In this document: positions 41,099 through 59,085 of the stretch, in pieces
Numbering within the stretch: position 1 is the stretch's first letter
How the letters are laid out: the number at the start of each line of letters is the position of its first letter
NCBI RefSeq assembly: GCF_030384885.1
Contig: NZ_CP128613.1
Strand: one strand, 5' to 3'
DNA from: Escherichia coli
GTDB taxonomy: Bacteria; Pseudomonadota; Gammaproteobacteria; Enterobacterales; Enterobacteriaceae
DNA: 64,000 nucleotides
Translations under genes and position numbers: made by a program
Notes under the pieces: model-generated
What the model was told of the DNA's origin: nothing
The model's input: the letters and a program-made list of their open reading frames with translations, nothing else
Databases searched by the model: none

Positions 41099-41268
41099 AA
41101 TGGCTCACTCAAGCTTGCTCACGATTGATTCCAGTAACAAACCGTATTGTGTAATTATTTCTATAGCAGTTCGCTATATAGGCTTGTATATATCGAATGA
41201 TTTGAAAATCAAAGAGATAGGTAGATTTTCACTCGAAAGTAGTATTACGTGTTAGTGAGGAGTAATTA

Positions 41269-41282
41269 TTGTTCGGTATCAA
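41269..41282 (-). promoter_or_regulatory. FNR-type site in the dmsA promoter
   Basis: Minus strand reads TTGATaccgAACAA, the TTGAT-N4-ATCAA pattern with one mismatch in the right half, about 175 nt upstream of the dmsA ATG; dmsABC is an FNR-activated anaerobic operon. Confidence 0.6.
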
Positions 41283-41290
41283 AGGGAGAC

Positions 41291-41316
41291 AAAAAAAGCG
41301 CCCGCAGGCGCTTTTT
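41291..41316 (-). terminator. Intrinsic terminator downstream of serS
   Basis: gcgcc-cgca-ggcgc hairpin flanked by A7 and T5 (effectively bidirectional), 21 nt after the serS stop. Confidence 0.8.
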
Positions 41317-41336
41317 AGATTCAGAAAAATTGGGTA

Positions 41337-55664: not shown

Positions 55665-55886
<222 letters not shown>

Positions 55887-55928
55887 TTGTTTTACCGCCT
55901 GATGGGCGAAGAGAAAGAACGAGTAAAA

Positions 55929-55956
55929 GGTCGGTTTAACCGGCCTTTTTATTTTG
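55929..55956 (+). terminator. Intrinsic terminator downstream of infA
   Basis: ggtcggtt-taa-ccggcc hairpin followed by TTTTTATTTT. Confidence 0.75.
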
Positions 55957-56132
55957 TACGAAGAACGTTGGAAGTATAAGTACATAACTTGTCTCGATGT
56001 AGATATACTGCACAACTTGTTTACAGTATGAGCAAACGAGAATTGTCAGTAAAATTCTTCTTGACCGTTTTACTCCAACTCCCTATAGTAGCGCCCCGTT
56101 GCCCCCCATGAGGTCAGGCAGCAAAACAATTT

Positions 56133-56220
56133 GGTGAGGTGTCCGAGTGGCTGAAGGAGCACGCCTGGAAAGTGTGTATACGGCAACGTATCCGGGGTTC
56201 GAATCCCCGCCTCACCGCCA
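56133..56220 (+). tRNA. serW: tRNA-Ser (anticodon GGA), class II with long variable arm, encoded CCA
   Basis: GGTGAGG acceptor 5' side pairing with CCTCACC, D-arm GTCCGAGTGG, anticodon loop CUGGAAA, T-arm GGTTCGAATCC, 3' GCCA. Confidence 0.93.
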
Positions 56221-56231
56221 TATTCAAGAAA

Positions 56232-56261
56232 GAGCTCGTACGAAAGTACGGGCTTTTTTTT
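56232..56261 (+). terminator. Intrinsic terminator downstream of tRNA-Ser
   Basis: gctcgtac-gaaa-gtacgggc hairpin followed by T8. Confidence 0.8.
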
Positions 56262-56299
56262 CGCATGTTGCACAGTCTGGCGGGGATGAGAAGCCCGGA

Positions 56300-56444
56300 C
56301 CGGGGTTCGACAACTGGCGACAGCCAGTTGGACAGACCGCGAACGCAGTGAACGGGCTGCCCGCAGGGCGAGCGAAGCGAGTCAATCCCCGCCTCACCGC
56401 CATATTCAAGAAAGAGCTCGTAGGAAAGTACGAGCTATTTTCGC
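56300..56444 (+). repeat. Degenerate partial copy of the tRNA-Ser 3' part plus terminator, interrupted by a 73-nt insert (possible att-site scar or tRNA pseudo-fragment)
   Basis: ccggggttcga (56300..56310) equals tRNA 56192..56202; 56384..56435 equals 56202..56253 at 50 of 52 positions; the 73-nt insert 56311..56383 contains the perfect hairpin caactggc-gaca-gccagttg. Confidence 0.6.
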
Positions 56445-56691
56445 ATTTTAGCTGCCTGTCCGGCAGTGAACTCAAATACTACACGCTTAACCCGTTGTTA
56501 ATAAAGCGAAACCATCAATATTCCCCGCTCAGACCCTTTTTTATCCCTATATCCCAGCGAATATTATTATCAATAACTTACGTCACCCCCACAAAAAAAG
56601 GTCAAATCTGCTCCACCGAAGCACAAAAAAAGCCCGTAACCCCATATTGGATTACGGACTCAGATTGTTGACAACGTGCGATTTGTTTATG

Positions 56692-56788
56692 TCAGATGCG
56701 GCGTGTTCACCTTATCCGACCTACAAAATCATGCAAATTCAACAGATTGCAGTTACCTTGTAGGCCTGATAAGCGCAGCGCATCAGGC
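56692..56788. repeat. BIME: two REP elements in inverted orientation, just downstream of clpA
   Basis: tcagatgcggcgtgttcaccttatccgacctac and cttgtaggcctgataagcgcagcgcatcaggca both match the REP form. Confidence 0.8.
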
Positions 56789-56808
56789 ATTTTTCCTTCG
56801 CCATCAGA

Positions 56809-59085
56809 TTAATGCGCTGCTTCCGCCTTGTGCTTTTGTGCACTCTGAAATCCGTAAGTCAGCTCATTTTTCTCTTTATCCAGCGCAACCGTCACCTGAC
56901 CGCCGTCCACCAGCGAACCAAACAACAGTTCGTTGGCGAGCGGTTTTTTCAGGTTGTCCTGGATGACACGCGCCATCGGACGTGCGCCCATCGCCCGGTC
57001 GTAACCTTTCTCGGCCAGCCAGTTACGCGCTTCCTGACTCACTTCCAGGGAAACACCTTTCTGATCCAGCTGAACCTGCAACTCGACGATGAACTTATCC
57101 ACCACCTGATGGATCACGTCGGTTGACAGATGATCGAACCAGATAATGTTGTCGAGACGGTTACGGAATTCCGGTGTAAAGATCTTCTTGATCTCTTCCA
57201 TCGCATCGGTGCTGTTATCCTGGTGGATAAGACCAATGGATTTACGCTCAGTTTCCCGTACCCCGGCATTAGTGGTCATCACCAGCACCACGTTACGGAA
57301 GTCCGCTTTGCGTCCGTTGTTATCGGTCAGCGTACCGTTGTCCATCACCTGCAACAGAATATTGAACACGTCCGGGTGCGCTTTCTCGATTTCGTCCAGC
57401 AGCAGCACCGCATGAGGATGCTTGATGACCGCATCAGTCAGCAAACCGCCCTGATCAAAACCAACGTATCCCGGAGGCGCACCAATCAGACGGCTGACGG
57501 TATGGCGTTCCATATACTCGGACATATCAAAGCGCAGAAGCTCAATGCCCAAAGCTTTCGAAAGCTGTACCGTCACCTCTGTTTTCCCGACCCCGGTAGG
57601 GCCGGCAAACAGGAACGAACCGACTGGTTTATGTTCGTGACCTAAACCTGCACGCGCCATCTTAATGGCTTCAGTCAGCGCCTCAATGGCTTTATCCTGA
57701 CCGAAGACCAGCATTTTCAGGCGATCGCTGAGGTTTTTCAGGGTATCGCGGTCACTCTGAGAAACACTCTTCTCTGGAATGCGCGCAATACGGGCCACCA
57801 CGGACTCAATATCCGCCACATTAACGGTTTTCTTGCGTTTGCTTACCGGCATCAGGCGTGCGCGAGCGCCCGCTTCGTCGATAACGTCAATGGCTTTATC
57901 CGGCAGATGACGATCGTTAATGTATTTCACCGCCAGCTCTACCGCTGCACGCACCGCTTTTGCGGTATAACGCACGTCATGGTGCGCTTCGTACTTCGGT
58001 TTCAGGCCGTTGATGATCTGTACGGTTTCTTCAATCGACGGTTCAGTAATATCAATTTTCTGGAAGCGACGCGCCAAAGCACGGTCTTTCTCGAAAATGT
58101 TGCTGAACTCCTGATAGGTTGTCGAACCAATTACGCGAATTTTACCGCTTGAGAGCAACGGTTTGATCAGGTTAGCCGCATCAACCTGACCACCAGAGGC
58201 TGCCCCCGCACCGATAATGGTGTGGATCTCATCAATAAACAGGATGCTGTTAGTGTCCTGCTCCAGCTGCTTGAGCAACGCTTTAAAACGTTTTTCAAAG
58301 TCGCCGCGATATTTTGTGCCCGCTAACAGAGAACCGATATCGAGAGAGTAAATCGTACAGTCAGCCATCACTTCCGGCACATCGCCCTGAACAATTCGCC
58401 AGGCAAGACCTTCCGCAATCGCGGTTTTGCCGACACCGGATTCCCCCACCAGCAGCGGGTTGTTTTTACGGCGACGGCAGAGAACCTGAATAGCACGCTC
58501 CAGCTCCTTCTCACGACCAATCAGTGGGTCGATTCCGCCCACACGCGCAAGCTGATTCAGGTTCGTCGTGAAATTCTCCATACGTTCCTCCCCACCAGCT
58601 TGTTCTTCGCTGTTTGGCTGGCTGCCAGGATCAGAAGACTGTGTCGGCTCGTCTTTACGCGTGCCATGAGAGATAAAGTTCACCACATCGAGACGGCTGA
58701 CTTCATGTTTGCGCAACAGATATGCCGCCTGCGACTCCTGTTCGCTAAAGATAGCGACCAGAACGTTTGCACCGGTAACCTCATTGCGACCGGAGGACTG
58801 GACATGGAAGACCGCACGTTGCAGTACACGCTGAAAACTCAGCGTTGGCTGTGTGTCGCGCTCCTCTTCACTGGCAGGCAGAACGGGTGTGGTTTGTTCA
58901 ATAAAGGCTTCCAGTTCCTGACGGAGCGCAACCAAATCCACGGAACACGCTTCCAGCGCCTCCCGGGCAGATGGGTTACTGAGCAGCGCCAGTAACAAGT
59001 GCTCGACGGTCATAAACTCATGACGGTGCTCGCGCGCTCTGGCGAAAGCCATATTTAAACTGAGTTCCAGTTCTTGATTGAGCAT
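56809..59085 (-). CDS. clpA: ATP-dependent Clp protease ATP-binding subunit ClpA
   Basis: Track ORF 763 aa; start taken at ATG 59085 ([19 protein letters not shown], 758 aa) with GGAGG upstream; two AAA+ modules. Confidence 0.95.

Follow-up and report, generated by a model that had tools for sequence, protein, structure and literature searches.

A tRNA-linked repeat of the TLR/RtT family downstream of a variant serW gene in Escherichia coli

The stretch of Escherichia coli DNA considered here (64,000 nucleotides of contig NZ_CP128613.1, assembly GCF_030384885.1; the window) carries the conserved gene order cydC-aat-infA-serW-clpA-clpS, a region with a 100% match in strain 2013C-4282 (NZ_CP027579.1). 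The gene serW encodes tRNA-Ser(GGA) at 56133-56220 on the plus strand, as called by ARAGORN and by a local Rfam scan (tRNA, 52.2 bits). It is preceded on the same strand by a promoter-like site at 56061-56089 (TTGACC, 17 nt, TATAGT), recovered by a scan for sigma-70-like sites; clpA lies on the minus strand and ends at 56809. An Rfam scan of the whole window gave a sole match above cut-off, the STnc130 sRNA at 41189-41323 on the plus strand (139.5 bits). The serW tRNA was omitted from that scan, probably through filtering in the larger search.

The last 19 nt of the tRNA and the trailer that follows them (56202-56269, plus strand) occur twice in the interval between serW and clpA. The original prediction, made from the letters of the window, had described a 52-nt duplication with two mismatches, and this is confirmed: the direct repeat relates 56202-56259 to 56384-56441 with 95% identity over 58 nt and continues weakly to 56269 and 56449. 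A 52-nt repeat with two mismatches within 250 nt lies far beyond chance, and the same arrangement is seen again in other genomes. The prediction was equally right that the T-arm 5' segment CCGGGGTTCGA recurs as an exact 11-nt repeat (56192-56202 and 56300-56310), and that the recurring parts are separated by a 73-nt insert at 56311-56383 opening with a perfect 8-bp hairpin, as both repeat search and folding show. The hairpin, CAACUGGC-GACA-GCCAGUUG, occupies 56311-56330 (-14.1 kcal/mol, z = -5.0). One component had been missed: the whole T arm recurs, nearly intact and in inverted orientation, at 56279-56299, a stretch with 86% complementarity to 56191-56211.

Taken in order along the plus strand, the unit consists of trailer and terminator, a T-arm complement with an ATGAGAA loop, the 5' half of the T arm, an insert of ~70 nt, and the last 19 nt of the tRNA. 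The first terminator (T1, 56226-56261) combines a GAAA-looped hairpin with a U8 tract after it (-20.5 kcal/mol, z = -7.0). The repeat body, delimited by its match to the Rfam RtT RNA model, spans 56265-56402. Within it, the complement stretch covers the host T arm and 2-4 nt of the acceptor 3' strand. Its first part, GGCGGGGAU at 56279-56287, complements the T-stem 3' strand as well as 2 nt of the acceptor, and forms the 5' strand of helix P1 in the minimum free energy (MFE) fold. The loop motif ATGAGAA at 56286-56292, placed by an alignment of 16 units, is the T-loop complement with its two central bases altered (ATTCGAA would be expected). The direct copy of the T-arm 5' half (CCGGGGTTCGA, 56300-56310) is the T-stem 5' strand, ending in TTCGA; with its complement it forms a predicted hairpin, P2, at 56290-56308 (GAA-CCCG paired with CGGG-UUC). 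The insert folds into P3 (56311-56330) and P4 (56335-56383, including GCCCGCAGGGCGA). A hammerhead-like reading of GAUGAGAA was rejected, as the core misfits and no Rfam ribozyme family matches. The 3' part of the unit completes the 3' strand of the T arm and adds that of the acceptor, with CCA; this copy of the tRNA end lies at 56384-56402 and contains the 3' strand of P1 (56385-56393). A second trailer copy with a second terminator (T2) follows at 56403-56449, with its hairpin at 56410-56442 and an interrupted U tract (-15.3 kcal/mol, z = -4.1).

The MFE fold of the unit contains all four helices, P1 to P4 (-62.9 kcal/mol, z = -2.9). P1 joins 56279-56287 to 56385-56393 through 9 bp, corresponding to the outer helix of the Rfam RtT model. 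When the whole serW-T1-unit-T2 transcript (56133-56449) is folded instead (-150.5 kcal/mol, z = -8.2), the complement within the unit is predicted to pair with the T arm of the tRNA itself in place of P1, and the 5' acceptor strand of the tRNA is predicted to pair with the acceptor 3' strand as copied in the unit. Such pairing could be a competing structure of the precursor or an artefact of equilibrium folding.

How the unit would be expressed can be approached from its layout. A scan of 55880-56830 for sigma-70-like sites gave nothing besides the serW site, leaving the repeat with no predicted promoter of its own, and the promoter scan likewise found no promoter-like site in the interval from T1 to the unit. 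The terminator scan called the T1 and T2 hairpins on the minus strand only; the plus-strand terminators were read from the sequence and then folded, and T2 is the weaker of the two (-15.3 vs -20.5 kcal/mol). The T1-unit-T2 layout equals the arrangement after rrnB, where the unit between T1 and T2 is described as a product of read-through (PMC8144298). Since no promoter of its own is predicted, the serW unit would be reached by read-through of T1, in a serW transcript extended at its 3' end. The enzymes of tRNA maturation would then trim the 3' end of the unit, given that it bears the tRNA's own 3' end; the processed RNA would end at or near ...CACCGCCA and would fold into a junction closed by P1 (56279-56287 with 56385-56393). 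Read-through, tRNA-like trimming and a P1-closed fold are together the most likely course, judged from the layout and by analogy with the rrn members. T1 looks strong (a 9-bp G+C-rich stem and U8), so transcription of the unit may be very low.

The surroundings of the unit hold several features of their own. Directly after T2, at 56444-56471 on the minus strand, lies one degenerate type I-F CRISPR repeat (GTTCACTGCCGGACAGGCAGCTAAAATG), scoring 34.8 bits against a cut-off of 35 for Rfam CRISPR-DR4. The same place holds two CRISPR repeats and one spacer in K-12 and in strain 23CRST050, and one repeat in E2348/69. This is presumably the residual clpA-infA CRISPR array of strains that have no I-F cas genes. 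The serW-clpA spacer at 56440-56690 finds a megablast match in 1 of 5426 genomes and is 77% identical to K-12, where the flanking genes are 96-98% identical. Further along, 56676-56800 adds ~120 nt, placed between the terminator and the stop codon of clpA, that are absent in K-12, E2348/69, ETEC4068 and F95; this stretch looks like two REP-type palindromic units and gives weak matches to Rfam ES036 and naRNA4.

The unit after serW belongs to a long-known repeat family located just 3' of tRNA genes, and in this respect the finding is an ordinary one. The TLR hallmark, according to PMC8144298, is that the 3' 18-19 bp of a unit equal those that end the tRNA or rRNA gene upstream; TLRs are located in tRNA and rRNA operons, directly 3' of the gene with matching orientation, and are co-transcribed with it and then released by processing. 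Their discovery at tyrT dates from 1978, and the catalogue of Rudd (1999) comprised 22 units at ten K-12 loci (PMC8144298). For tRNA-linked members, the same source gives the function as not known. The window unit begins 45 nt after serW on the same strand, its 56384-56402 is identical to 56202-56220 at 19/19 positions, and its relatives include annotated RtT units at serX and serW as well as the tyrT units, with which it has plan and motifs in common.

The Rfam RtT RNA model (RF00391) matches the body over its full length with 43.9 bits (E = 5.5e-7), 1.1 bits short of the curated gathering cut-off (45 bits); the window unit thus falls below the threshold, and for this reason has no RefSeq annotation. 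Its sister Ser-type units score 45.0-48.6 bits and the Tyr units of tyrT/tyrV 132-137 bits. Identity between the window unit and units annotated in RefSeq as 'RtT sRNA' at serX and serW is 90-93%. The Rfam cut-off misses the unit of this strain by just that small difference in score. Membership of the TLR family, of which the tRNA-Tyr members are RtT RNA (RF00391), very probably explains the locus as a whole, with the proposed dynamics, read-through, trimming and P1-closed fold included; the identity and architecture of the unit, its presence or absence across genomes and its separateness from island integration are direct observations.

Comparison with named members of the family shows what is held in common and what varies. 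RtT RNA, or rttR, is reportedly the 178-bp repeat of the tyrT-tyrV operon described by Egan and Landy in 1978. Its parts come in the same order as those of the window unit: a complement with a ATGAGAAG loop first, then the T-arm 5' half with TTCGA, an insert of ~70 nt with CCCGMAGGGCGA, and the last 18-19 nt of the tRNA. Both are organized as tandem repeats and both have the outer helix P1. The arms differ, being tRNA-Ser-like in the window unit and tRNA-Tyr-like in the tyrT/tyrV units, and the inserts are only loosely similar, which accounts for the window's 43.9 bits against 132-137. The insert motif CCCGMAGGG is common to Ser-type, Tyr-type and Chlorobium units. Because Tyr and Ser units share this plan, the splitting of the T-arm fragment by an insert is a property of the family and no local accident. 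Each Ser-type unit includes an intrinsic terminator, whereas no hairpin followed by a T run was seen in the Tyr units of tyrT/tyrV.

Among Ser-type units, those at serW in E2348/69, ETEC4068 and F95 occupy the same site as the window unit, and those at serX in K-12 a paralogous site; identity is 90-93% and the period 181-182 nt at both. The window copy differs from these relatives in two ways. It is unannotated, within a serW-clpA spacer allele found in 1/5426 genomes, whereas its serX and serW relatives are annotated, and it alone has C-G for G-C at the T-stem-derived positions, in step with its own variant tRNA. More distant relatives are rrA, rrB and rrF, after the 5S genes of rrnA, rrnB and rrnD. 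As described in PMC8144298, these repeat 18 bp from the 3' end of the gene before them and lie, like the window unit, between terminators T1 and T2; they copy the end of 5S rRNA where the window unit copies that of a tRNA. The same source reports that they are products of T1 read-through, processed near the repeated end, and that they bind Hfq and CsrA in vitro, whereas for 19 tRNA-linked members CsrA binding is predicted to be absent (probability <0.01).

Units of this kind come and go within the species. A query made of serW, the unit and downstream sequence matched over at least 80% in 22 of the 5426 complete E. coli genomes searched; in the three that were opened (E2348/69, ETEC4068 and F95) the unit is at serW and is annotated 'RtT sRNA' in RefSeq. 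A K-12-type genome has three tandem 181-bp units after serX, two of them annotated 'RtT sRNA', while alignment places the one 182-bp unit missing from K-12 serW between breakpoints within 66-nt direct repeats. Gain and loss would thus proceed by recombination between the unit's own 66-nt direct repeats, or by conversion from serX. The original prediction had listed a local duplication among its readings; this stands in the loose sense that the unit is of a tandem type whose gain and loss map to those 66-nt repeats; as a neutral copy, a reading taken up below, it is improbable.

The most distinctive property of the window copy concerns a single base pair of the tRNA and its reflections in the unit. 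The T-stem pair 49:65 of serW, usually G-C, is C-G here (56193/56209), a variant unique to 1 of the 5426 complete genomes; serX of the same genome has the usual G-C tRNA and the usual unit. About 12 substitutions separate the window from all four reference loci, and five of these fall at corresponding T-arm-derived positions: 56193, 56209, 56281, 56297 and 56391. The concerted change therefore comprises the tRNA pair and three unit positions (56281, 56297 and 56391). Of the three, 56281 pairs with 56391 in P1, and 56297 disrupts a pair of the Rfam model yet stays complementary to tRNA position 49. The change may reflect either selection on RNA pairing or copying at the DNA level between inverted repeats.

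P1 is the sole helix of the consensus structure in the 16-unit alignment, with 90% of cells paired and 5/9 pairs changed on both sides across the units; its pairing and covariation scores were reached by 0/500 shuffles. The covariation could also come from inverted copying of the T arm at the DNA level in place of selection on an RNA helix. P2, assessed by MFE folds and the family alignment, has 81% of cells paired with limited covariation, a moderate level of support. The motif ATGAGAA is invariant in 16/16 aligned units, representing 4 tRNA identities and 6 phyla.

That breadth was explored by pattern searches beyond E. coli. The loose pattern GGRTGAGAASN12GTTCGA gave at least 123 matches in species-representative genomes, ~106 of those listed being noise, so that the number is not a census; among the matches listed, 17/123 lie within 400 nt downstream of a tRNA gene on the same strand. 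RtT-like units follow tRNA-Ser, -Pro, -Arg and -Tyr in Chlorobi, Fibrobacter, Bacteroidota, Verrucomicrobia, Alphaproteobacteria and other Enterobacteriaceae. In distant phyla they are often tandem, and they also occur in many metagenome contigs. Two RtT-like loci checked in Rfam reached 19-25 bits for RtT, below the cut-off, and matched no other family. A stricter scan of metagenomes, biased to T stems that fit the pattern, gave at least 151 matches. Among those listed, 106/151 have a same-strand tRNA at most 1200 nt upstream, mostly tRNA-Ser and tRNA-Pro, and in 79/106 the T-stem 3'-strand complement matches the host over at least 6 consecutive pairs.

Every unit read by eye had a T-stem 3'-strand complement matching its host tRNA, including units whose host T-stem pairs are G-U or mismatched. 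At G-U pairs or mismatches of the host T stem, both arms are exact strand complements in the tRNA-Pro and tRNA-Arg units read, and because the arms thus complement both strands at such sites, P1 and P2 are favoured over a single T-arm-like hairpin. The T-stem 5'-strand complement is less regular, and fails to match in one unit from Leclercia and in those from Chlorobi. It is possible, and is offered here tentatively, that RtT/TLR units are far more widespread than the Rfam model or the E. coli literature describes. No description of such breadth was found in the literature searched, which mostly leaves subscription journals outside, and novelty is not claimed.

Placement after so many tRNAs invites other explanations. 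The unit could derive, as relic or passenger, from a small mobile element whose targets are tRNA T loops and which takes up a copy of the host's T-arm sequence on insertion. Such an element would account for related inserts after different tRNAs with host-matched arms; the insert does interrupt the T loop at one position, after TTCGA, in Ser, Tyr, Pro and Arg units alike, the motifs ATGAGAA and CCCGMAGGG are common across phyla, and units lie downstream of many tRNA identities. It is quite unlikely all the same: the window shows no associated transposase, integrase or reverse transcriptase, target-site duplications are not evident, no intact tRNA gene was seen to be polymorphic for an insertion, and the tandem arrays have a period that includes the host trailer, as unequal recombination predicts.

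Another reading is a neutral duplication of the tRNA 3' end, its sequence unconstrained. The unit is dispensable at serW, since K-12 is without it and the carrier allele is matched by 22/5426 genomes, and, as stated in PMC8144298, the function of tRNA-linked members is not known. Against neutrality stand the retention of plan and motifs from Enterobacteriaceae to Chlorobi, Fibrobacter and Bacteroidota, the compensatory changes in P1 and the five-site concerted change in the window copy, all of which make this reading quite improbable.

Direct repeats of a tRNA 3' end also call integration to mind, and serW and serX are real island sites in other strains. In 23CRST050 the space between serW and T1 is taken up by a 46-kb island (3155-49250 of the extracted serW locus), with a P4-type integrase (WP_000279860.1) at its right end and a cargo of iha, blaCTX-M-15, blaTEM-1, aac(3)-IId, mph(A), sul1, dfrA12 and a class 1 integron remnant. 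It is flanked by a 14-nt direct repeat (CCCCCTCACCGCCA) whose core is inside the last 14 nt of the tRNA, and downstream of the island two repeat units and then clpA follow unchanged. At serX of strain 12689, a related integrase is found at the same junction with a 14-nt direct repeat of the tRNA end. Because the 14-nt core is in the tRNA in both the serW and the serX allele, crossover takes place within the tRNA and the units stay outside the island. The expectation that related genomes might carry an island between the two repeat copies is thus not borne out, as the serW and serX islands sit between tRNA and T1. The attL/attR repeats of an island resemble the window repeat in being direct repeats of a tRNA 3' end beside a proven island-target tRNA, but they are 14 nt long and flank 46 kb of foreign DNA and an integrase, whereas the window repeat is 58-66 nt long, includes a terminator and flanks a conserved, structured module of 116 nt.

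One might still suppose that the unit's copy of the tRNA 3' end works as a secondary attB, an alternative landing site for the serW/serX islands. The exact 14-nt core is indeed present in each unit of other E. coli, the window copies being one position off. This reading, also put forward originally, is very improbable. A chimeric query built on one island left end found that end joined to the repeat copy in 0/5426 genomes; among the matches listed, the island end adjoins the tRNA itself, for example in O104:H4 strains. In the window, moreover, tRNA and unit each depart from the core by one base (G at 56209 and at 56391). The unit segment 56262-56383 is found in 15 records of a plasmid collection, several of them multi-megabase, chromosome-sized sequences filed as plasmids, and no mobile-element junction is annotated among the 15.

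Least credible, and largely refuted, is the first choice of the original prediction, a tyrosine-integrase scar in which an old attR would survive as the second tRNA 3' end, and an element remnant as the DNA between the copies: the islands of 23CRST050 (46 kb) and 12689, each with its 14-nt repeat of the tRNA end, lend it plausibility, but they lie upstream of T1 and of unchanged units, their ends (gattataagcgcatg... and ...atttatttcaggcggt) show no resemblance to the unit or its 73-nt insert and were not found there, the repeat extends 47 nt past the tRNA into trailer and terminator, beyond an att core, units of this type also follow tRNA-Tyr at tyrT/tyrV and other tRNAs in other phyla with arms matching the local tRNA, 56262-56383 has no match in 50,697 phage records (the suggested search for phage similarity), and no integrase-like ORF or remnant is present among the window ORFs. 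The duplicated tRNA 3' end beside serW is not evidence of a lost prophage or island, and a false annotation lead is thereby removed.

A TLR-family unit, then, is what lies after serW. tRNA-linked repeats have been known since 1978 and are still without an assigned function, and two observations made here supply handles on it: the T-arm complement tracks the host tRNA across phyla, and tRNA and unit have changed together at five sites. If the wider distribution proves true, it would point to a conserved function linked to the adjacent tRNA through its T arm, possibly as a cis-acting 'anti-T-arm' in the folding, processing or quality control of the precursor. The window copy, in which the tRNA pair 49:65 has changed and three unit positions along with it, is a natural experiment on that relationship.
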